Shown: positions 2,964 through 17,398 of the stretch, one piece after another
How the letters are laid out: each line of letters opens with the position of its first letter
How positions within the stretch are numbered: position 1 is the first letter of the stretch
Origin: a virus
Lineage: Duplodnaviria; Caudoviricetes
Length of the DNA stretch: 40,692 nt
IMG/VR virus record: IMGVR_UViG_3300006040_000004
Span: 1-40,692 of that record
Direction: 5' to 3' (one strand)
Notes under the pieces: model-generated
Seen by the model: the letters and a program-made list of their open reading frames with translations, nothing else
Database searches by the model: none
Told to the model about the DNA's origin: nothing
Program-made: the position numbers and the translations under genes

Positions 2964-5281
2964 GCGGCGGAGTACGCCGCCATTGCCGCCGCGCCCGTTA
3001 GCGACCAGGAAAAGTGTCCCTCACGCACGTACAGCGTGGGGCGCTGGCCGTCGGGTTGCACGGGGTTATTGGTGCGCCCGTCTACCAGGCCGGGGTGTTT
3101 CACATACCCTAACCCCTCCAGGAGCGCACCGCGTTGGGCGCGTGGAACACTTCGTCCCGCTTGCATCTCCTTAAGCAGATGATCTAAAAAGTGTGATGAT
3201 GCCCACCCGTCCCGGAATCCTACACGCCCATTGTCCGCCGCGTGCAGTATCTCCTGTTCGATAGATGACCGGCTCAGTTGGATGGCCTCGCGCGTGCTGC
3301 TCGTCGTGGGTGCTTCGTGGCACGCCCCGGCGGGGTCGAACTCAGCGGCGATGGGGTACGAACGCAGGTAATCCGCCACCACCGAATACCCATACTTGGC
3401 GCCGTGCTTCGCGTACTTGTTGCGCCCCTCGAACCAGTCATACAGATCGGGGAAGTACGTCCCGCCCATGCCGTCCCGTATTTTATCAGCCTTAGACTGC
3501 TGTGCAGTGTATAGGATGCAGTAGCGGCGGTTATCGGTGTTGACGGGCACACCGTCCTTGTGGTTCGTACACATGAGGCCATTGGCGCGGTTGTCCCCCA
3601 TGACCTGATTCGCGCCCTTACCCTCGAACTGGATGCGGTCATTTGTGACCATCGCCTTGAACGCTTCCAGGAAGTCCCGACGGTGCGGGACATATATCTC
3701 CTCGATGCCTATAAATATTTTACGATCCAACCAGCTATTGAACTTTGCCCCGTTTTTCGCCATGTCGGCCACGTCCGGAAGGTGCGTATACCTGTGCCCG
3801 ACGGCATGGGACAGGCAGCGAATTACGGCGCTCTTACCGTTGCCCACGGTGCCCTGTAACACTGGCCAATACTGAAATTTACGCCCCGGATTTTGCACGA
3901 GTGAAGCGCAGTAACTCAGCAGGATTTCACGATCGCGGGGATCGGGTAGCATCTTCGTAATCAGGTTTACGAACGGCGCGGGGTCGCCGGAAACACTCAA
4001 TGTGTCCGTGGGAAGGTAGGTGTTAAACAGTATGCGCCCCTCTTCCTGCACCAGTGCGCCTGGTTCCAGTTCTGGACGGAAACACAACGAGTGCGCACGC
4101 GGGAACCGTAGCGCCTGGGACTGCGTAAAACACTCCCACGCCTTGCGGCTGCTGCGGGTGTTCGCGTCGTCCATCGTGTAATTAAATCCGCCGTACCGCA
4201 CGTTAAAGCGCGCTTCGTCCAATGTCGCGCCGTCGGGGGTGAAAATCAGATTACGATCTTCGACATACACGCAGCCTGCGAACACGGCGGCCTGCTGATC
4301 CACGTTTACGAACGTAGAACCCGACACAGGGGAGGGGGTGGCTGCGCCGGTAACGCGGATGCCTACCGATTCGGCGGGGGTGTCCTTACAGAAGGCTTTC
4401 TGCCCTGAACAGGCGAACAACACGGTACGGGTCAGGTAATCGTCCCGATCCCATTTTTCCCGCACCAGGCCAGAGGTGAGCATGATTCGGTGGATTCGTT
4501 CGCAGTCCCCACCCGTCCAGAACGCGAGGTGGCGCGCAAGGGCAGCGTCCGCCCCGCTGGCGTCGTAAGGGCGCTCGGGATCGGGAAACGCCGCACTGAG
4601 AGCGTCCACGTCTGCCGTCCAGAGTTGGTCGAACGAGGCGGTACGCCCGAACGCGCTGGAGGCGCTCTTACTGTTGCGCGCCCGGCGTATTAGGTCGGCG
4701 TCATCGGCGGGGCCGCGCCATTCGGGGTGAGGCGCGTCCGTCCAGGCAGGGAGCGCGCCTTCCGGTGCGTCAGGTACGGGGGCGAAATACTGTGTGACCA
4801 ACGCGGCCAGGGCGGCGGAACAGTCCAGCCCGGCGTCCCCGATGGCTTGATCGGTACGCCCGAACGCCACGAATCGGGAGGCGTGGTAAAACTCCAGGTG
4901 GTGCACGTCGTTCTTGCACTTGTGTGGGGGTATCGTCCCCGTGCCGATGATGTGCAGGCCACGCCCGGACTGCGAGACTTCCACGAACGCGCCAGCGAAC
5001 ATCGCGCACAGAGCCAGCGCGAGGGGCGACCACTTACCGTCCGGCTGGAGGCAGCTATCAATATCCAGGAGCCAGAACGGGTCGTTCTCGGTGAGGGCGA
5101 ACCCAACGAGAGGGCTATGTTCCCGCGCGTTTTCGTAGGTCGTCCAGATGCGTGGGTCTTGCGCGTCGGACACAGCTCCGGTGCCCCAGTCGGTGGGTTT
5201 TTTGTCCATCTTGCCCGCCGAACCAGCGCGGGGGACGAGCTTATAAGTGACGAATTGATGATATGGGAGGAGTGCATTCAT
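2930..5281 (-). CDS. Primase-polymerase / D5-like SF3 helicase fusion
   Basis: LDID and EVSQSGRGLH primase-polymerase motifs; Walker A QGTVGNGKS; TNH motif. Confidence 0.9.
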   Translation of the reverse strand: MNALLPYHQFVTYKLVPRAGSAGKMDKKPTDWGTGAVSDAQDPRIWTTYENAREHSPLVGFALTENDPFWLLDIDSCLQPDGKWSPLALALCAMFAGAFVEVSQSGRGLHIIGTGTIPPHKCKNDVHHLEFYHASRFVAFGRTDQAIGDAGLDCSAALAALVTQYFAPVPDAPEGALPAWTDAPHPEWRGPADDADLIRRARNSKSASSAFGRTASFDQLWTADVDALSAAFPDPERPYDASGADAALARHLAFWTGGDCERIHRIMLTSGLVREKWDRDDYLTRTVLFACSGQKAFCKDTPAESVGIRVTGAATPSPVSGSTFVNVDQQAAVFAGCVYVEDRNLIFTPDGATLDEARFNVRYGGFNYTMDDANTRSSRKAWECFTQSQALRFPRAHSLCFRPELEPGALVQEEGRILFNTYLPTDTLSVSGDPAPFVNLITKMLPDPRDREILLSYCASLVQNPGRKFQYWPVLQGTVGNGKSAVIRCLSHAVGHRYTHLPDVADMAKNGAKFNSWLDRKIFIGIEEIYVPHRRDFLEAFKAMVTNDRIQFEGKGANQVMGDNRANGLMCTNHKDGVPVNTDNRRYCILYTAQQSKADKIRDGMGGTYFPDLYDWFEGRNKYAKHGAKYGYSVVADYLRSYPIAAEFDPAGACHEAPTTSSTREAIQLSRSSIEQEILHAADNGRVGFRDGWASSHFLDHLLKEMQAGRSVPRAQRGALLEGLGYVKHPGLVDGRTNNPVQPDGQRPTLYVREGHFSWSLTGAAAMAAYSAAQGVFTLAAVK

Positions 5282-6228
5282 GTTAGATAGCTCCCGATGA
5301 ACGCTTTGGCCGCTTCGGCATTGATAGCATTGCCGTAACCGCGCAGTCGTCCCACACGGGCGGCAGCCCCATGAGCCAGCGGGAATGTGCCGGGTTCAAC
5401 TGGCCGCCATTTTCCATCGCGGCATCCGAGCCAGTCAGCATCTCGCCAGAAACCGTTAGTCGGGCGGCTTGGGGGTGACATACGAGGTGTTGTGCCCATA
5501 TGGCAAGGCACGTTCCGCTGTTCGGTCGGTCGTACTGGCGCGCGGAGTACGCTTGGGGGTCGCCCGTCCGGCTGTGATTCACGTTGTGGCAGTCGGGCGT
5601 CGGCCAACCTGTTAGCGTCACATGCTCCCGTAGGTTCGAGCAACCGCCTTTCAACTTGTTCCGGGCCAACGCTTCCCCCGTTTTTGGTGGCAACGTGTCC
5701 ATACAGTTCGGTGTCGGCCATCCTGTCCGCAACAAACCAGAGTCGTTGTCGGATGTGCGGCGCGCCGACGCCCGCAGCGCAGAGATCGACCGCCCCTGTG
5801 GCGTAGCCCGCTCCTTCCAGGTCAGCTTGTACAAGGTCGAGCCAACCGAGGCCGTCAGGGCTTGCAACTTGCTCACCAAAGATCGTGTCAGGCTGGCACT
5901 GTGTGATGAGGTGGAAGAATGCAGGCCAGAGGTGCCGCTCGTCAGACATCCCAGCGCCTTTGCCTGCCGCGCTGAAAGGTTGGCAGGGGCAAGAGCCAGT
6001 CCAAACTGGGCGATCGTCAGGCCACCCAGCTTGTCGCAGGGCATAGTCCCATCCTGCGACCCCCGCGAACCAGTGACACCTGAGGAACCCGGCAGCGTCG
6101 CTTGGTAAAACATCTTCGATTGATCGTTCATCTACTTCCCCTCGCATAATGTGACCCGCTTTCATCAACTCTCGAATCCAAGCAGCCGCGAAGGGGTCGC
6201 GCTCATTGTAATAAGCCCACTTTTTCAT
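5278..6228 (-). CDS. DNA (cytosine-5) methyltransferase, main subunit
   Basis: FAGVAG (motif I), GSCPCQPFS (IV), EQV (VI), HIRQRLW (VIII), GYGNAI (X). Confidence 0.9.
   Translation of the reverse strand: MKKWAYYNERDPFAAAWIRELMKAGHIMRGEVDERSIEDVLPSDAAGFLRCHWFAGVAGWDYALRQAGWPDDRPVWTGSCPCQPFSAAGKGAGMSDERHLWPAFFHLITQCQPDTIFGEQVASPDGLGWLDLVQADLEGAGYATGAVDLCAAGVGAPHIRQRLWFVADRMADTELYGHVATKNGGSVGPEQVERRLLEPTGACDANRLADARLPQRESQPDGRPPSVLRAPVRPTEQRNVPCHMGTTPRMSPPSRPTNGFWRDADWLGCRDGKWRPVEPGTFPLAHGAAARVGRLRGYGNAINAEAAKAFIGSYLT
5283..6131 (-). CDS. Overlapping alternate-frame ORF, candidate methyltransferase beta subunit (true start uncertain)
   Basis: 282 open codons nested in the MTase; two GWPTP repeats; motif IX-like LNPAHSRWLMGLP. 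Confidence 0.6.
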   Translation of the reverse strand: MNDQSKMFYQATLPGSSGVTGSRGSQDGTMPCDKLGGLTIAQFGLALAPANLSARQAKALGCLTSGTSGLHSSTSSHSASLTRSLVSKLQALTASVGSTLYKLTWKERATPQGRSISALRASARRTSDNDSGLLRTGWPTPNCMDTLPPKTGEALARNKLKGGCSNLREHVTLTGWPTPDCHNVNHSRTGDPQAYSARQYDRPNSGTCLAIWAQHLVCHPQAARLTVSGEMLTGSDAAMENGGQLNPAHSRWLMGLPPVWDDCAVTAMLSMPKRPKRSSGAI

Positions 6229-6938: not shown

Positions 6939-6985
6939 CCGTGTTACGCACCATTTTTGGTGCCTAATACATGTTAGGCACCAAA
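6939..6985 (+). other. attI/dif-like recombination site 1: TTTGGTGCCTAA-TACATG-TTAGGCACCAAA with upstream GTTACGC box
   Basis: 12-bp perfect arms with 6-bp spacer; contains GTTAGGC core (6973-6979); GTTACGC at 6943-6949; caps cassette array 1. Confidence 0.6.
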
Positions 6986-7167
6986 CTAAATCCTGTGCGT
7001 CGTTCTTTCCCGTCTGTGTGAATTGCCTTCAGTAAGTACCTGCGCACCTTCCCGATGCCATCAACCGCGCATACGCCATTTGGTAGAATCTCAATAATTT
7101 CGAGCACCCTGTTCTTTCCCATGCGCGGGTCATTGTCTTTAATCTTGTCGCCAATTTTCAGCTCCAT
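6964..7167 (-). CDS. Cassette hypothetical protein (small, SH3/KOW-like beta protein)
   Basis: GAGGTGA RBS; LKIGDKIKDND; stop lies inside the palindromic site. Confidence 0.7.
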   Translation of the reverse strand: MELKIGDKIKDNDPRMGKNRVLEIIEILPNGVCAVDGIGKVRRYLLKAIHTDGKERRTGFSLVPNMY

Positions 7168-7191
7168 ATCTCACCTCTCTATAGTTAAAAC

Positions 7192-7254
7192 CCCTAACCC
7201 GGCGGTGAAGAGGGATCGCCCAAAAGCGGGCGACCCCTTACCTCTACGTTAGGG
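7192..7254 (+). other. attC site
   Basis: CCCTAAC...GTTAGGG with inner GTGAAGAGGGATCGCCC / GGGCGACCCCTTAC pairing. Confidence 0.85.
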
Positions 7255-7454
7255 CGCAGTTTCTTAGCTTCATCTGCTGCCCATAAAAACCATTGGCTAG
7301 GTGTCATAGCGTAGTATCCATTTGGACCTGTGTCAGAAAGTAATTCACCCAGACATTTGGCTGCAATCTCCCATGTTATTGGGTCACGCCCTAACCCGGC
7401 GGTGAAGAGGGACTGCCCGTCTGCGGGGCTTTTTACGTTCACTGGTTTATTCAT
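7194..7454 (-). CDS. Cassette hypothetical protein, overlapping two attC sites
   Basis: AAGGAG RBS and ATG 7454 lie inside the loop of the 7389-7511 attC; stop inside the 7192-7254 attC. Confidence 0.6.
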   Translation of the reverse strand: MNKPVNVKSPADGQSLFTAGLGRDPITWEIAAKCLGELLSDTGPNGYYAMTPSQWFLWAADEAKKLRPNVEVRGRPLLGDPSSPPG

Positions 7455-7511
7455 GCCCACTCCTTTTTTGTTAGTTCACTAATCGGGCAGCCCCTTACCT
7501 TGACGTTAGGC
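7389..7511 (+). other. attC site with long variable terminal loop
   Basis: CCCTAACCCGGCGGTGAAGAGGGACTGCCC ... GGGCAGCCCCTTACCTTGACGTTAGGC. Confidence 0.8.
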
Positions 7512-7709
7512 ACCACCCGGTGTGGTTTCGTCGATCTCTTTTATTATTGCTTCCATTTGTTCAACAATTTCACGGAATTCAATGATTGAATCAGATGCTT
7601 TTACTCTCACGTCTCCGAAATGTAAAAATATTCCACGCTCGACTATATCACCGTCTGAATCATAGTCATTTACTGAAAAATTAATGTTTTTTGGGTGCGC
7701 CATGTTCAT
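7506..7709 (-). CDS. Cassette hypothetical protein (acidic, 67 aa)
   Basis: Fills the space between two attC sites; stop TAA coincides with the GTTAGGC core. Confidence 0.75.
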   Translation of the reverse strand: MNMAHPKNINFSVNDYDSDGDIVERGIFLHFGDVRVKASDSIIEFREIVEQMEAIIKEIDETTPGGA

Positions 7710-7727
7710 ACCCTCTTTTAAGTTTCA

Positions 7728-7783
7728 GTCTAACGAGTCGTTGGAGCGCGACGGCTTCGCCGCGCCTCAACTATGCGTTAGGC
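7728..7783 (+). other. attC site
   Basis: GTCTAACGAGTCGTTGGAGCGCGACGGCTTCGCCGCGCCTCAACTATGCGTTAGGC. Confidence 0.9.
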
Positions 7784-8038
7784 ACCATTCTCCATGACGT
7801 ATTTTTTAGCATCATCCTTTGATACATCTACGCCATCCCAATCCAAATAAATAGTGTCGGCATTGCATTCGTCGATCATCTGGCAAATTAACTCTTTTTG
7901 CTCTGGCGTGTCGCGCTGCGTCATCGCTCCGGCGGACGCCCCAAGGGCAAAGTAACTTTTGAGAAGATCCCTGCCTTTTTCACTATTGAGATTCCATGCT
8001 TTCAGAGTTCCCCACTTTAGGGTAATATGGTCTTTCAT
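7778..8038 (-). CDS. Cassette hypothetical protein (LKWGTLKAW motif)
   Basis: GAGG RBS; stop coincides with the attC core. Confidence 0.8.
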   Translation of the reverse strand: MKDHITLKWGTLKAWNLNSEKGRDLLKSYFALGASAGAMTQRDTPEQKELICQMIDECNADTIYLDWDGVDVSKDDAKKYVMENGA

Positions 8039-8054
8039 TTCACTACCTCATTAT

Positions 8055-8111
8055 GCCTAACTTTTCGTCCAAGCGGACTGCTCCGCCGCCGCTTAACTCA
8101 CGGCGTTAGGC
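8055..8111 (+). other. attC site
   Basis: GCCTAACTTTTCGTCCAAGCGGACTGCTCCGCCGCCGCTTAACTCACGGCGTTAGGC; same layout as the aadA-type 59-base element top strand. Confidence 0.92.
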
Positions 8112-8117
8112 GTCAAT

Positions 8118-8468
8118 CTACCCATTTTCATTTCGGCATGGTGACGGGTTTTCATCAAACCGTACCGCCTTGATAGTTTTCTCTCCGGTCAGTATCGCCT
8201 TCATAATCCTGTGCCTTCCGTCCATTAATTCACCGTCTTCGTCAAGGATTATCGGCTTTGTTAAGTCGGCTTCATTAACCGCCCGCATATGCATGACCAT
8301 TTCCCGAAGTGTTAACTCTTTATAAGTATAAAAAACGTTCAAGTGGTCAATCGGAATCTCCATTACGGGCATCTCTCGCGCCAGCTCAAATAGTCTTGGA
8401 ACACTCCAAGAAAGCCGACCGAGCATACACATCTGATCTTTTGGGGCGAGCCATTTATCAATCTTCAT
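8118..8468 (-). CDS. Cassette ParB/Srx-like domain protein
   Basis: PIILDEDGELMDGRHRIMKA motif. Confidence 0.8.
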   Translation of the reverse strand: MKIDKWLAPKDQMCMLGRLSWSVPRLFELAREMPVMEIPIDHLNVFYTYKELTLREMVMHMRAVNEADLTKPIILDEDGELMDGRHRIMKAILTGEKTIKAVRFDENPSPCRNENG

Positions 8469-8481
8469 TCCAATACCCTAT

Positions 8482-8559
8482 GTCTAACACTACGTTTAAG
8501 GTTCGTTCGCTCCGCTCACCGGACTGGCTACGCCAGCCGCCTTAACTCAGGCGTTAGCC
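8482..8559 (+). other. attC site
   Basis: GTCTAACACTACGTTTAAGG ... CCTTAACTCAGGCGTTAGCC. Confidence 0.88.
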
Positions 8560-8590
8560 GCCACCAGCATCACCAGTGGCGGCAGGTCAG

Positions 8591-8815
8591 TTAGAAGAAA
8601 GTCGGTTGCGCCACGGCGCGGGTGAGCGCCATCAGGCCGGTCTGAAAATCAGTAGCGCCGATGCTGACCCACCGCTGATCAAGCCCTTCAGTTGAGCGGA
8701 GCTTTGCCACAAGCTCACCCAGCTCGGCTCCTTTAGTCTTGATCTCGTTCATTGCCGCAATCTCGGCTTCGTTCAGTTCGCGATAGCCCTTGATCTGTCT
8801 ATGTTGGTTTTCCAT
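8591..8815 (-). CDS. acb2: Anti-CBASS cyclic-oligonucleotide sponge, Acb2 family
   Basis: MENQHRQIKGYRELNEAEIAAMNEIK...RWVSIGATDFQTGLMALTRAVAQP matches the Acb2 family pattern (NQH..IKGYR.L..EI..MN..K; RW..IG.TD.QTG.MA..RA.AQP), recalled from knowledge. Confidence 0.9.
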   Translation of the reverse strand: MENQHRQIKGYRELNEAEIAAMNEIKTKGAELGELVAKLRSTEGLDQRWVSIGATDFQTGLMALTRAVAQPTFF

Positions 8816-8855
8816 TGCGCATCCTCTGTATTGTACCGCTGCATTATCGGGCGCA

Positions 8856-8890
8856 GCGGCGAAGCCGTCGCGTTGAACGCCGGGTTAGCC
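8856..8890 (-). other. Half attC site in inverted orientation
   Basis: Minus strand reads GGCTAACCCGGCGTTCAACGCGACGGCTTCGCCGC; the partner half is missing. Confidence 0.6.
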
Positions 8891-8899
8891 GCGCTTTAA

Positions 8900-9073
8900 C
8901 TATGTGATATACGCCAAATCATTGCGTGGTATTTTTTCCAAAAAGTCTTCACATTCCCGCATCGTTTCAAATCTGTTTCCGTCGATGTTTATTGACCCAT
9001 CTGAGTTTTGAGTGAGGTCAACGCCCCTGTTTTTGCATGGCTGACGCAAATTAAAGATAAAAATAGAATTCAT
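8900..9073 (-). CDS. Cassette hypothetical protein (57 aa)
   Basis: AAGGAG RBS before ATG 9073. Confidence 0.65.
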   Translation of the reverse strand: MNSIFIFNLRQPCKNRGVDLTQNSDGSINIDGNRFETMRECEDFLEKIPRNDLAYIT

Positions 9074-9089
9074 TGGTATTCTCCTTGCC

Positions 9090-9179
9090 GTATAACCCAA
9101 CATTCAAGCGGGACGCGCTTGAAGCGCCTGATGTTGTCTGGTCGGTCATTTATGCGCGCCCCTTAATTCTGCGTTATAC
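9090..9179 (+). other. attC site
   Basis: GTATAACCCAACATTCAAGCGGGACGCGC ... GCGCGCCCCTTAATTCTGCGTTATAC. Confidence 0.85.
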
Positions 9180-9661
9180 GTCATCAACACTTCGTCCAAG
9201 AGTCTCGGCGCAAGGGCTGTATGCTCGACCGAAACGCAGATGTATCTTTTATCGTCAATCGCTTTACTGTGAAGGTGTCCGTGCAGATTAGCCACGTATC
9301 TAGTTTCAAGTTGAGACGGATGCACCGGGACGTGTGTCAAAATGCACCCACGCAATTCTGCCGCACCAAAAATCTTGCCGAAGTATTGCTGGTAAATTTC
9401 AAGCGGGTAAACATCATGGTTGCCAAGCACCAATCGCTTTATGCCGTTTAGTTGTCCAAGAATAGTATGGTTATCCCGTCCGCCCATGAACACATCGCCC
9501 AAGTGCCAAACCGTGTCTTTTGGCTTTACTGTGGCATTCCACCGCTCAACCAAAACACGATCATGCTCTTCAATCGTGGCGAACGGACGATCCACGGGCT
9601 CAAATTCGATCACTTTTTTGTGGCCGAAATGGGTGTCCGAGATTACAAAAACTCTGTTCAT
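9146..9661 (-). CDS. Cassette calcineurin-like metallophosphoesterase
   Basis: SDTHFGH, LGD, GNHD, THVP, HGHLH motifs; C-terminus encoded by attC. Confidence 0.9.
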   Translation of the reverse strand: MNRVFVISDTHFGHKKVIEFEPVDRPFATIEEHDRVLVERWNATVKPKDTVWHLGDVFMGGRDNHTILGQLNGIKRLVLGNHDVYPLEIYQQYFGKIFGAAELRGCILTHVPVHPSQLETRYVANLHGHLHSKAIDDKRYICVSVEHTALAPRLLDEVLMTYNAELRGAHK

Positions 9662-9678
9662 AAAACTCCAAAAATGAC

Positions 9679-9705
9679 GTATACCCCTTAACTCAGGCGT
9701 TAGCC
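9679..9705 (+). other. Internally deleted attC
   Basis: GTATA joined directly to CCCCTTAACTCAGGCGTTAGCC; the right half matches the 8482-8559 site. Confidence 0.65.
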
Positions 9706-9709
9706 CCCA

Positions 9710-9886
9710 TCATCGCAGCCTGTACTCATAATAAACTTCAGAGCAGTGCACCGTGCTCGTCACGTCTAGAGTGCATGGGCGAATGGATATGATCTTCGTC
9801 GCACGCAACATGTTGACGTAGTGAAAAAGTTCCTCCATTGTGCTCCAATACACTTTCGCATTTCTGTAGCTAATTATTTCTGTCAC
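9710..9886 (-). CDS. Cassette hypothetical protein (58 aa)
   Basis: Not in ORF track; AGGGGG RBS, GTG start, MTEIISYRNAKVYWSTMEELFHYVNMLR... Confidence 0.55.
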   Translation of the reverse strand: MTEIISYRNAKVYWSTMEELFHYVNMLRATKIISIRPCTLDVTSTVHCSEVYYEYRLR

Positions 9887-9902: not shown

Positions 9903-9957
9903 CTCTAACCCAACATTGGAGCCGACCGCTACGCGTCGGCTCAACTATGCGTTATTC
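9903..9957 (+). other. Terminal attC of array 1, overlapping the helicase stop
   Basis: CTCTAACCCAACATTGGAGCCGACCGCTACGCGTCGGCTCAACTATGCGTTATTC. Confidence 0.85.
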
Positions 9958-11539: not shown

Positions 11540-11634
11540 ATTGACTTGTTCGTCAATATCCCACAGACTGCAAGCTCTGTCAAACGAATTATTTTTAACG
11601 ATTCGTACCGAGGGCTATTGACAACTCCGTCAGT
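11540..11634. promoter_or_regulatory. Candidate operators ATTGAC-N6-GTCA(A/G)T
   Basis: ATTGACTTGTTCGTCAAT (11540-11557) and ATTGACAACTCCGTCAGT (11617-11634), each overlapping one promoter. Confidence 0.55.
11555..11583 (-). promoter_or_regulatory. Sigma70-type promoter for the leftward operon
   Basis: TTGACA-17 bp-GATATT on the minus strand. Confidence 0.6.
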
Positions 11635-14331: not shown

Positions 14332-16524
14332 GTGACAAACCGAACCGCCTCCATCGACTTCGAGACGTACTCCGAGGCGGGGTACGTCTGGGCCGGGAAA
14401 TGGGGAGCGCTTCCTGGTGCGTCGCAGGGCAAGAAAGGACTCGGGGTGGTGGGAACCTCCGTTTACTCGGAACACCCCAGTACTGAAGTTCTCACCATGT
14501 CCTACGACATTGGAGACGGTTCGCGTAACTGGCAACCGGGGGCACTCCCTCCGGTCGCTCTTTTTGCACACATTCGAGGGGGTGGCATCGTTAAAGCGTG
14601 GAACACCCGCTTCGAATACCTAATTTGGAATAACGTGTGCGTGCCGAAGTACGGCTGGCCGCCGTTACCCTTGAGTCAATTAAGGGACACGATGGCGAAG
14701 TCTCGGGCGCACGCGTTACCCGGCAAGCTGGGCAAGGCCGCAGAAGTCCTCGGTCTTACCGAACAGAAAGACCCAGACGGCGACCGACTGATTAAAAAAT
14801 TCAGTATGCCGCGCAACCCGACAAAGAAAGACCCGCGCACGCGAATACGGCTCATGAGCGAACCCGTCGATGGCCCCCTCATGCTCGCGTACTGTGACCA
14901 GGACGTGCGGGCGGAAGCCGCAGCAGACGTGGCGATCCCCGACCTGTCCGCCGCTGAGACGGAGGTGTGGCTGCTCGACCAAGAGATCAACGAACGGGGC
15001 GTGATGCTCGACATGGACGGCGTGCAGAGCTGCATCGCCGTGATCGAACAGGCGCACGCTCAGTACAACGAGGAACTGCGCGCACTGACGGGCGGTACGG
15101 TGTCTCGTGCCAGCGAACTCCAGAAACTCATCGGCTGGCTGGGAGCGCAGGGCGTACACACTGAGAGTCTCGATGAGGAACATCTGTCCGAGTTGCTGCG
15201 GGCGCCTGAGTTGCTGCCCCCGCAAGCCCGACGCGCCCTTGAGATACGGGAGGCCATCGGTAGCGCCGCCGTGAAGAAGGTATTCGCCATGCGGAACGCG
15301 GTGTCGAAGGACGGACACCTTCGCGATCTCTACCTGTACCACGGCGCGCGCACTGGGCGGGTAACGGGCGCGGGCGCACAGCCGACCAACATGCCCAACA
15401 GTGCGGGGGTCTACGCCACACGGTGCGAGGCGTGCGAACGCCACTACGGGGCGGGGATCAAGGACTGCCCGTGGTGCGGCTGCTCCGGCGACCTGTCCCA
15501 CCAGGTAGAATGGGGTGTGCCCGCCGCGCAGGACGCACTGGAGGTGATCGGCACACAGAACCTTAACGCAGTGGAGCATTTCTACGGCGACGCCATGCAG
15601 GCCGTCTCCGGCTGTCTACGCAGTCTGTTCGTCGCCGCGCCCGGCCACGACCTGATCTGTTCGGACTACTCCAGCATCGAGGCGGTCGTACTCGCCATGC
15701 TGTCCGGGGAACCGTGGCGCATCGACGTGTTCAGGACGCACGGGAAGATTTACGAAATGTCCGCCGCGAAGATCGCAGGCGTTTCGTTCGAGGCCATGCT
15801 TGAACACAAGAAAACAACCGGGCAACACCACCCCCTCCGCAAGCTGGGCAAGGTGGCAGAACTCGCCAGCGGCTACCAGGGGTGGATCGGGTCGTGGGTG
15901 CAGTTCGGTGCGGACGAGTTCTTGCCCGAGGAAGAAATAAAAACGGCGATCCTCGCTTGGCGTGCGGCGAGTCCGGCGATCGTGGAGCTATGGGGCGGGC
16001 AGGAGCGTAACTGGCAACCGGAGCTGTTCGGCGTGGAGGGCGCGTTCATCACCGCCATGCAGTACCCCGGTCGCGTCTTCTTCGTGCGGGGCCTGCGGTT
16101 TCGGATGTGGGGAGACGCGGTATATATCCGACTGCCCTCGGGACGGGAGCTGACGTACCATCGGCCACGTCTAGGGCCGAGTGACCGACGACCTGGCACG
16201 TACGCCATCAGTTTCGAGGGGTGGAACAGTAATCCCAAGAACGGCCCCGTCGGCTGGATAGTCCTGCGGACGTGGGGTGGTCGTCTGGTGGAGAACGTCG
16301 TACAGGCCATCGCACGGGATATTCAGTGGCACGGCCTCCTGGCGTTACGTGCGGCAGGGTATCCTACGGTTCTCCACGTCTACGACGAGAACGTGTGCGA
16401 GGTACCGGAGGGGTTTGGCAGTATCGAAGAGCTCGAGGCGATCATGGGCCGGATGCCCGAGTGGGCGGCGGATTGGCCGATTCGGGCACAGGGTGGATGG
16501 CGCGGTAAGAGGTATCGTAAATGA
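14332..16524 (+). CDS. Family A DNA polymerase with 3'-5' exonuclease
   Basis: IDFET, TGR, SDYSSIEA, RKLGKVAELASGYQG, HVYDE. Confidence 0.93.
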   Translation: MTNRTASIDFETYSEAGYVWAGKWGALPGASQGKKGLGVVGTSVYSEHPSTEVLTMSYDIGDGSRNWQPGALPPVALFAHIRGGGIVKAWNTRFEYLIWNNVCVPKYGWPPLPLSQLRDTMAKSRAHALPGKLGKAAEVLGLTEQKDPDGDRLIKKFSMPRNPTKKDPRTRIRLMSEPVDGPLMLAYCDQDVRAEAAADVAIPDLSAAETEVWLLDQEINERGVMLDMDGVQSCIAVIEQAHAQYNEELRALTGGTVSRASELQKLIGWLGAQGVHTESLDEEHLSELLRAPELLPPQARRALEIREAIGSAAVKKVFAMRNAVSKDGHLRDLYLYHGARTGRVTGAGAQPTNMPNSAGVYATRCEACERHYGAGIKDCPWCGCSGDLSHQVEWGVPAAQDALEVIGTQNLNAVEHFYGDAMQAVSGCLRSLFVAAPGHDLICSDYSSIEAVVLAMLSGEPWRIDVFRTHGKIYEMSAAKIAGVSFEAMLEHKKTTGQHHPLRKLGKVAELASGYQGWIGSWVQFGADEFLPEEEIKTAILAWRAASPAIVELWGGQERNWQPELFGVEGAFITAMQYPGRVFFVRGLRFRMWGDAVYIRLPSGRELTYHRPRLGPSDRRPGTYAISFEGWNSNPKNGPVGWIVLRTWGGRLVENVVQAIARDIQWHGLLALRAAGYPTVLHVYDENVCEVPEGFGSIEELEAIMGRMPEWAADWPIRAQGGWRGKRYRK

Positions 16525-16733
16525 TTAAAAACACAATGGTTCAAATAACGGCGTTATTCCCCGGTAAACACAAGATGTTCCTCGCGGGGTACTTTCACGG
16601 TTCCAACGGGTTCGCCGCGCACCAACTGAACGTCATACGGTCGCCGAGACGCCGCGAGGAACGTGAGGAATACCAGAAGGGGCATTCGGCGGGACGCCGC
16701 GAGGAACGTGAGGCGTACTACGCCGTGTTATAA
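16521..16733 (+). CDS. Hypothetical protein containing a 21-bp internal direct repeat
   Basis: ATGA overlap; GACGCCGCGAGGAACGTGAGG at 16648 and 16693. Confidence 0.6.
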   Translation: MIKNTMVQITALFPGKHKMFLAGYFHGSNGFAAHQLNVIRSPRRREEREEYQKGHSAGRREEREAYYAVL

Positions 16734-16748
16734 GACTTGGAGATAGAT

Positions 16749-17156
16749 ATGAATGCAGTTGTGATTGACGGGGTGCGGTACGTCACCGATCCGATGCACG
16801 CGGACGAGGTGAAGTTTTACTACATGCACGATAACCACACCTTTTCCAGATTGACCGGAGCCACCATTGATGAGGTGCTGGCTTCCGCTGACGCGATGGC
16901 AAAGGAAAGCCGTTGCGGGATGCTTTGCCCGCCGATGCTCTTGGCTGGAGGAAAAGAGGTGCGCCGCCTGAAAGCCGGTGCGCACGCGCCATGCTGCGGC
17001 AGCGACGACAGCAAATGGCTGACCGGGGTAGCAGAGTGGCGGACGGAATGCGAAGCGGACAGCGACGTGCGGCGGCTGGTGTCTTCTAACGCAGAATTGA
17101 GCCGCGACGTAGTCGTCGGCTCGGATATTGGGTTATGCAACGAGGGTAATGAATGA
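16749..17156 (+). CDS. Cassette-like hypothetical protein
   Basis: GGAG RBS; C-terminus SNAELSR... is read through an attC. Confidence 0.75.
   Translation: MNAVVIDGVRYVTDPMHADEVKFYYMHDNHTFSRLTGATIDEVLASADAMAKESRCGMLCPPMLLAGGKEVRRLKAGAHAPCCGSDDSKWLTGVAEWRTECEADSDVRRLVSSNAELSRDVVVGSDIGLCNEGNE
17084..17138 (-). other. attC site (top strand on minus)
   Basis: Minus strand GCATAACCCAATATCCGAGCCGACGACTACGTCGCGGCTCAATTCTGCGTTAGAA. Confidence 0.85.
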
Positions 17157-17365
17157 ATAAGATTCTGGCTTTCCCGGCGAGTACAACACTCACGGTTGGG
17201 CAGGCGCTCGATAGCGCAAACGGGATGCGCGAGCTGCTTACGGACGTGCTGATAGCCGGGTACGACGCTGACGGGGATTTGTATGTTCGATCCTCACGGA
17301 TGGATCGTAAGGACGCTTTGTGGCTGGCAGAGCAGTTGAAAAAGTACGCACTTGATGGTGCCTAA
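17153..17365 (+). CDS. Cassette hypothetical protein (70 aa)
   Basis: GAGG RBS; ends GGTGCCTAA like cassettes 7506-7709 and 7778-8038. Confidence 0.75.
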   Translation: MNKILAFPASTTLTVGQALDSANGMRELLTDVLIAGYDADGDLYVRSSRMDRKDALWLAEQLKKYALDGA

Positions 17366-17398
17366 TACATGTTAGGCACCACTTGGGGTGTAACACGG
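17356..17398. other. attI/dif-like recombination site 2
   Basis: TGGTGCCTAATACATGTTAGGCACCA identical to 6958-6983; outer GTAACACGG mirrors CCGTGTTAC of site 1. Confidence 0.6.

Follow-up and report, generated by a model that had tools for sequence, protein, structure and literature searches.

The genome of a tailed phage, IMG/VR record IMGVR_UViG_3300006040_000004 (one contig of 40,692 bases, estimated to be 100% complete, and called the window here over its full length), carries a gene for Acb2, a protein that counters the cyclic-oligonucleotide-based anti-phage signalling system (CBASS). Our analysis indicates that this acb2 gene is probably an integron-type cassette, lying in a nine-gene array of attC sites that has no integrase and whose genes run in reversed polarity, and that it was likely inserted by a host integron integrase (IntI) acting in trans. 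Its protein is predicted to sequester the cyclic di- and trinucleotides of CBASS. The argument is carried by the membership of the protein in the Acb2 family, the anatomy of the attC sites, the reversed polarity of the genes, the lack of a tyrosine recombinase in the phage and the presence of the same acb2 cassettes between different neighbours elsewhere. An earlier interpretation of the letters alone (the sequence-only reading) had pointed to an Acb2 homologue inside a cassette array; it overlooked the antisense genes, the missing recombinase and the damaged attC of this acb2 copy.

The cassette encodes a short Acb2

The acb2 open reading frame (ORF) is preceded by a ribosome-binding-like GAGG and its product matches the Pfam Acb2/Tad1 hairpin family PF24729, a profile that covers Tad1 as well as Acb2, with an E-value of 6.7e-18 and 65.1 bits against a curated cut-off of 27. 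The only PDB sequence matches at E <=1 were two Acb2 sequences (8h2j, E 1.2e-15; 8ixz, E 4.7e-15), aligned over both halves with a gap of about 19 residues between them. The AlphaFold model of the 74-residue protein (predicted local distance difference test 88.9) forms two long helices, and a Foldseek search with it ranked Acb2 structures 1 to 6 (top probability 1.00, with an E of 1.3e-3 that does not reach the 0.001 threshold) and Vs.4 of phage T4 at 7 to 9. On sequence and modelled fold the protein is nearer to Acb2 than to Tad1 or Vs.4. The assignment to Acb2 over both halves, and the profile and structure comparison with Acb2 and Vs.4 proposed as its check, have thus held up. The family is large (3,718 proteins at E <=0.001), and the proteins treated in the available text of PMC10312549, namely Acb2 of Pseudomonas phage PaMx33 (8H2J, 8H2X, 8IXZ), JBD67 Acb2 and T4 Vs.4, resemble the window protein in sequence and fold. 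The PDB chain of PaMx33 Acb2 has 93 residues, so the 74-residue protein is shorter by about 19 residues of helical turn.

That text assigns Y11 and K26 of Acb2 to dinucleotide binding and R67, T74, A70 and I71 to trinucleotide binding. In the PDB alignment PaMx33 residues Y11, K26, R67, T74 and I71 correspond to Y11, K26, R48, T55 and I52 of the window protein, and A70 to S51. The four residues reported as essential for ligand binding are all kept, and Y11 and K26 are invariant across 32 aligned sequences. As the Y11 and K26 equivalents are kept, dinucleotide binding is well predicted from the sequence. Trinucleotide binding is less sure, for two reasons. The same source ties the binding of cyclic tri-AMP (cA3) to a kink of the helix at E64 that reportedly widens the cA3 pocket, and the kink region falls within the stretch of about 19 residues deleted here; it also reports that an arginine added to T4 Acb2 gave no cA3 binding.

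The array consists of attC sites with antisense genes

The array (6964-9886) comprises nine genes, all on the minus strand, between the helicase and endonuclease genes. A covariance model trained on seven window sites and two from related loci (L006 and L018) found eight full attC sites in the window, seven in the main array and one in a second array; seven of the eight were in the training alignment, the exception being 7389-7511. At E <=1 it found no attC in the window outside the two arrays. With seven intact sites the proposed cassette array is real, and as a cluster of at least two attC sites without an integrase it belongs to the class defined as clusters of attC sites lacking integron integrases (CALINs). 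It is not a complete integron: there is no intI, and no attI was recognised, no model search for attI having been made.

Seven array sites share the same anatomy, an R'' box, a 5-nt spacer, an 8-nt L'' box with one unpaired base, L', a spacer and R'. Half of the box pairs (7/14) differ by changes on both sides, a count biased in favour of pairing by the structure having been drawn from the same sequences, and the canonical structure is the lowest-energy fold in five of the seven, with z scores of -1.2 to -4.6 against base shuffles. According to the available text of PMC5027507, the unpaired base marks the polarity of an attC. Here the unpaired L'' base lies on the plus strand, so every gene of the main array (9/9) is antisense to its site. 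A reading of the sites on the gene strand was excluded, as the extra base stands in L'' on the plus strand and the covariance model matches that strand only.

We compared this polarity with that of other arrays. A right-arm pattern from this phage yielded 73 viral stretches, of which 71 were scanned and two, from this phage, omitted; cassettes between successive sites were called by ORF length and ribosome-binding site, with identical ones counted once. The 138 viral cassettes comprised 83 antisense, 21 sense and 34 unclear. One contig accounted for 11 sense calls and was set aside post hoc, leaving 81 antisense, 10 sense and 32 unclear of 123. A ribosome-binding site with ATG stood at the antisense end only in 76 viral cassettes and at the sense end only in one. 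Bacterial arrays found with the same covariance model (34 loci, one opposite-strand duplicate match dropped) gave 57 sense, 5 antisense and 6 unclear of 68. The difference between viral and bacterial polarity has a Fisher p of about 1e-20 or lower with or without the contig set aside, over rows that are not independent. An integron integrase lay within about 4 kb of the model matches, on the same contig, in all five bacterial genomes tested, which argues that the model detects true integron sites. One viral record (L303-L306 and L308) carries a long array of mostly sense cassettes, like a bacterial integron.

The attC of this acb2 copy is damaged

The 9-mer GTTAGCCGC occurs in the window as exact copies at 8553 and 8884 only. 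The sequence-only reading had treated these as two cores flanking acb2. The copies are as described but they are not equivalent: 8553 is the intact R' core of the neighbouring site and 8884 lies within a damaged one. Besides the 8884 motif, the segment 8856-8892 contains, putatively from the acb2 cassette's own attC, the R'' and L'' boxes with their spacer and the terminal stem; the covariance model has no match at 8850-8912. When the segment is flipped, it shows 41/51 identities to the attC at 7728 across the breakpoint, with a score of 59 against 38 and 41 unflipped; the complementary cassette ends match over 9 nt; and the leader alignment improves to all five of the other acb2 cassettes tested. 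In the right arm left in place, 8894-8912, 10 of 12 letters agree with the R'' end of the cassette that follows.

The 8884 motif is therefore most likely the R'' box of the acb2 cassette itself, turned by a 37-bp inversion. On the identities and the end match, the repeated 9-mer would be the cassette's own end reversed; this supports a cassette origin and implies that the attC of acb2 no longer works. Such an inversion would tie acb2 to its 57-aa neighbour, and the two could leave jointly through the sites at 8482 and 9090. The view of 8884 as an ordinary core was dropped in favour of the inversion on the identities, the 9-nt end match and the leader alignments. We also set aside an assembly artefact: contigs from the covering runs share the same state and contain no joint, although three of the four runs are possibly the source of the window DNA and contigs drop rare variants. 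These three sediment metagenome runs contain nearly the whole array.

Short hairpins at both ends of the acb2 cassette (8553-8580 and 8832-8860, with equivalents in L006, L282 and L360) resemble empty cassettes. The stem at the acb2 3' end differs between the window and L006 by paired changes that track those of the cassette ends.

The same acb2 cassettes lie between different neighbours

Targeted patterns gave 31 matches in metagenomes, 19 with acb2, four of these 19 being cassettes (this phage, the L006 phage, L174 and L184). L174 and L184 are metagenome contigs that may or may not be phage. The 18 viral matches comprised this phage, two without acb2 and 15 others, seven of which were complete cassettes. 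Of 12 viral matches to the cassette-start motif, 6 have no acb2, so the motif is not confined to this gene. An intact attC of its own stands beside acb2 in L004, L006, L357, L358, L360, L364 and L369, and the complementary ends of intact single-gene acb2 cassettes elsewhere measure 8-13 nt. All the acb2 cassettes found elsewhere are antisense to attC.

Two types recur. In type A the protein is 91-92% identical to window Acb2, and L006, where the surroundings are Mu-like genes, shares with L004, where a repressor-type gene lies nearby, a 373-bp unit at 99% identity; L174 has a 92% version. The L006 cassette stands alone, inserted at G/TT (the slash marks the crossover) within the stop codon of the upstream gene, and the outer cassette junction in L004 is G/AT. 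In type B the protein is 46-47% identical, and a unit of 362-378 bp is 99% identical in L360, L364 and L369, whose neighbours differ and which gave no BLAST match to one another beyond the cassette unit; L357 and L358 carry a variant. Identity between shared units ends at the crossover points or no more than about 10 bases from them. L184 (protein 97% identical) and L046 hold two-gene acb2 cassettes. The sequence comparisons indicate that acb2 cassettes have evidently moved between phage contigs, and the recurrence of an exact unit between different neighbours suggests that phages likely trade acb2 using the integron recombinases of their hosts.

Could acb2 instead be a plain phage gene brought in by illegitimate or homologous recombination, with 8884 an unrelated right arm left after a deletion? 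In favour, most homologues of acb2 are found outside cassettes, 8870-8892 admits a second reading as L'-spacer-R', and in L018 an attC abuts a seemingly resident acb2 while L010 shares the downstream DNA without attC. Against this, the window DNA aligns with intact acb2 cassettes from the G/TT boundary through the leader, a second right arm at 8894-8912 matches the end of the next cassette, and the inversion accounts for both the identical 9-mers and the identity across the breakpoint. We regard an ordinary gene as very improbable and retain the cassette origin.

In a quick tree of 137 Acb2 rows, weakly resolved, well-supported branches force at least two changes of state, and five appear as drawn. 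With at least two forced changes to the cassette state, a single origin of cassette-borne acb2 is unlikely.

Two loci deserve separate mention. At L018:676-992 the attC abuts what looks like a resident acb2, and the locus was not counted as a complete cassette; the closely related L010 shares the DNA downstream and lacks an attC. The locus may show capture at an early stage, or else an array that inserted next to a gene already resident. At L174:2358-2712 a fragment cuts into the attC of the acb2 cassette. By its motif, which no tool matched, we take it to resemble the end of an IS110-family transposase. Some insertion sequences target attC sites.

Evidence weighing against the cassette reading

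Several observations weigh against the reading of acb2 as a mobile cassette of host-IntI origin. The lowest-energy fold of the re-oriented acb2 site pairs the terminal stem only, and those of the sites at 8055 and 8482 (the latter folded one base short) pair the R and L boxes non-canonically. The rule for orientation is crude, being ORF length and ribosome-binding site, its counts come from cassettes that are not independent, and different routes led to the viral and the bacterial set. We examined the best 80 of 217 viral acb2 loci, one of which is this phage, and attC adjoins acb2 in 5 of the other 79, so most acb2 genes are not in cassettes; among these five, the L006 and L018 sites were in the training set and L044 was weak (E 0.2). 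In the 79 loci of helicase relatives (51-67% identity) we found no attC, nor any empty or reordered allele. This excludes the array as a family-wide trait, and it belongs to this lineage, not to the phage family. A host supplying IntI is a supposition, and recombination, expression and ligand binding are predictions from sequence and models.

In genome loci, attC lay within 250 nt of acb2 in none of 52. The near-misses were L199, with one weak site 312 nt off, and L211, with an array 3 kb off. The latter contig (L323) comes from a bacterial genome bin in which an antisense array lies about 3 kb from acb2, possibly in a prophage or a misbinned phage. PF24729 matched 10 of 401 genomes (one unpublished, G220, included), with attC in none of the nine loci scanned, and the L006 cassette DNA had only partial matches, in 22 of the 401 genomes (G220 among them). 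In the bacterial genomes searched we found no acb2 cassette in an integron. The expectation that acb2 would be found beside attC elsewhere holds for other phage contigs, with different neighbours, and fails for these bacterial integrons.

A proposed mechanism for assembly of the array

No PF00589 tyrosine recombinase was matched in this record, estimated to be complete, using a profile whose control was positive in 14/14 genomes. Nor was an integron integrase found in 10 viral records (nine other carriers of acb2 cassettes or attC-adjacent acb2, and a second contig of this phage), two of which are at least 90% complete. The recombinase might be something other than host IntI, such as the integrase of a co-infecting phage. 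We think this unlikely: these ten records gave no integron-integrase match, with the reservation on completeness just stated, and the same type of site sits beside chromosomal integrases.

With host IntI as the probable recombinase, the following sequence seems plausible. During infection, IntI would insert circular cassettes into the phage DNA at GWT sites or resident attC sites, starting here with a GTT that lies at the helicase gene's 3' end and continuing at the attC sites already present. In most rows, helicase relatives align as far as residue 525-527 of 528. The overlap of the last attC with the end of the helicase coding sequence suggests the GTT there as the entry point of the first cassette, and so as the insertion point of the array. 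Cassettes whose gene faced the phage promoter, in this pool those antisense to attC, would be expressed and retained. The array genes would be read from the promoter of the helicase operon, each bringing its own ribosome-binding site just inside attC; the sigma-70-like match at 11555-11583 is predicted to drive the helicase, array and endonuclease genes. The inversion between 5-bp inverted repeats would later have broken the attC of acb2, leaving exit only with the 57-aa neighbour, and decay of sites (8856-8892 and 9679-9705) may fix useful genes in place. An Acb2 hexamer would then sponge CBASS signals of the cyclic GMP-AMP type, and probably of the cA3 type, and so block the effector, to judge from the conserved residues and the family.

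Decay also raises the prospect of a frozen relic, in which the cassettes were gained once, the decaying sites serve at most as spacers or RNA hairpins and no shuffling now takes place in this phage. Three of ten junctions are damaged or collapsed, the phage has no integrase, several genes end or start inside sites, and contigs of four runs (three possibly the source of the DNA) contain no joint or variant; domestication of inserted cassettes through attC loss is noted in the available text of bioRxiv 10.1101/2022.09.11.507474. The full box anatomy of seven sites speaks against a relic, acb2 cassettes that are 99% identical despite their different contexts suggest that movement has been recent in the population at large, and rare variants are dropped from contigs. 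We hold a relic to be rather unlikely; as to origin, it is compatible with insertion by host IntI.

The cargo bears on what the array is for. Among its nine genes one (acb2) has a counter-defence match, one encodes a metallophosphoesterase and seven are without an informative match. Nothing in the cargo scored above an NCBIfam cut-off, and PADLOC, whose models are for defence and not counter-defence, returned nothing. A dedicated island, most of whose cassettes counter host immunity, would fit the presence of acb2 and the contents of the 113 non-sense viral cassette ORFs, which include 9 DNA methyltransferases, 2 Mom proteins and 1 Acb2, and the available text of PMC9892861 proposes this role for methyltransferase cassettes. 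Set against it are the single match in nine and the roughly 90 of the 113 viral ORFs without a Pfam match, together with the NCBIfam and PADLOC results. Such an island is conceivable but somewhat doubtful. The sequence-only reading had called the array a shufflable anti-defence locus; the evidence reaches to movement of acb2 cassettes in other contigs, and not to an anti-defence role of the array as a whole.

A broader proposal is that phages keep their own pool of reverse-polarity cassettes, run on host integrases, and trade counter-defence genes across unrelated phage types. Here acb2 would have been packaged at least twice from ordinary phage genes, and the cassette-end hairpins would be relics of empty cassettes that record how new cassettes form. 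We put this forward tentatively, as something short of an even chance. If true, reversed polarity would silence host defence cassettes in phage arrays and phage cassettes in host integrons.

Other features of the arrays and the phage

Table 1. Positions of the acb2 cassette, the attC sites and associated features in the window.
Feature	Position	Strand	Basis
acb2 gene, 74 aa, short form of the anti-CBASS sponge	8591..8815	-	Pfam, PDB, AlphaFold/Foldseek
acb2 cassette unit in attC polarity, 353 bp, crossover G8553/T8554 to G8906	8554..8906	+ (gene -)	sequence; homology to intact cassettes
37-bp segment between 5-bp inverted repeats, putatively inverted	8856..8892	.	sequence comparison
Right arm of acb2's own attC, in place: L', spacer, R', G/AT crossover	8894..8912	+	sequence
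Intact attC	7192..7254	+	covariance model
Intact long attC, absent from training set, 32 bits	7389..7511	+	covariance model
Intact attC, terminal stem same as acb2's own site	7728..7783	+	covariance model
Intact attC	8055..8111	+	covariance model
Intact attC of neighbouring cassette; R' core 8553-8559	8482..8559	+	covariance model
Intact attC; next usable site past acb2's damaged one	9090..9179	+	covariance model
Collapsed attC: right arm retained, L'' and terminal stem missing	9679..9705	+	sequence; no covariance-model match
Last attC; overlaps final codons and stop of helicase gene	9903..9957	+	covariance model
Perfect 12-bp hairpin, two core-like boxes, far end of array	6956..6985	.	sequence
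Five further cassette genes (67, 86, 67, 86, 116 aa)	6964..8468	-	no Pfam match
Three further cassette genes (57 aa, 171-aa metallophosphoesterase, 58 aa)	8900..9886	-	Pfam, sequence
Sigma-70-like promoter match, 10/12 with TG, upstream of helicase	11555..11583	-	consensus match only
attC of second small array after DNA polymerase gene	17084..17138	-	covariance model; flanking genes +, again antisense

The second small array (16521-17365) has genes on the plus strand, one intact attC on the minus strand and, near 16725, possibly a collapsed one. Both arrays are closed at the gene-distal end (6956-6985 and 17356-17381), where an attI-like entry point would fall in attC polarity, by one and the same palindrome, in which two core-like boxes flank a 6-nt loop; an exact 22-nt search of viral contigs found this palindrome only in this phage. 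The 116-aa cassette protein (8118-8468) gives a weak ParB-N-like lead, carried by 16% of the members of one atlas cluster. Relatives of the metallophosphoesterase have a clear attC at one of four other loci, again with the gene antisense.

The record encodes a terminase, portal, major head protein, family A DNA polymerase, helicase, primase and cytosine methyltransferase, and the identity of its polymerase to the enzymes of cultured phages does not exceed 52%. At 5278-6228 and 5283-6131 two long ORFs overlap in different frames of one strand; each matches DNA methyltransferase families, and together they would form a two-subunit cytosine methyltransferase, one subunit nested within the other. 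Low-complexity repeats made of short GC-rich units occupy 1691-2212.

Significance and comparison with known systems

Integrons have been seen as bacterial tools and lately as stores of anti-phage defences. If the reading offered here is true, one recombination system supplies both sides of the phage-host conflict, and reversed phage arrays would be a place to mine unknown anti-defence genes. Since close relatives of acb2 exist in two states, plain phage gene and cassette, the gene gives a handle on the open question of how cassettes arise. The weight of this is limited by there being one identifiable anti-defence gene in nine and a damaged site on this copy.

The sites match canonical attC as set out in the available text of PMC5027507 (Nivina et al. 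2016), with R'', a 5-nt spacer, an 8-nt L'' with an unpaired base, a variable terminal stem, L', a spacer and R', and the cassettes share the G/TT crossover and complementary ends described there. Unlike a canonical integron, the phage array has antisense genes and no intI, and would be expressed from a phage promoter at its far end. The GWT consensus of attG insertions (bioRxiv 10.1101/2022.09.11.507474, in the part available) fits both G/TT (helicase end and L006) and G/AT (L004), whereas the target here is phage DNA and the cargo phage-type. The integron cassettes of bioRxiv 10.1101/2024.07.02.601686 and 10.1101/2024.07.02.601719, as far as their available text goes, also serve the phage-host conflict; here the cargo is counter-defence, on the phage side and in reversed polarity. 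The survey of anti-defence genes in PMC11370490 counts integrons among their locations and, in the part available, does not place Acb2 there. Window Acb2 differs from that of PaMx33 in being packaged as a cassette.

We found no published report of Acb2 cassettes or reversed phage arrays in the open-access literature. Among the closest known systems are the CALINs of phage genomes (PMC9892861, Qi et al. 2023), which in the available text are attC clusters without an integrase, recombined by IntI1 and carrying methyltransferases, with cargo proposed to counter host defence, as here. That text has no Acb2 cargo and no systematic reversed polarity, unlike the window phage, and its example TJE1 gives two weak covariance-model matches on the same strand as the genes. 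Phage attC clusters were known already, and the combination of reversed cassettes with a characterised counter-defence cargo is apparently new.
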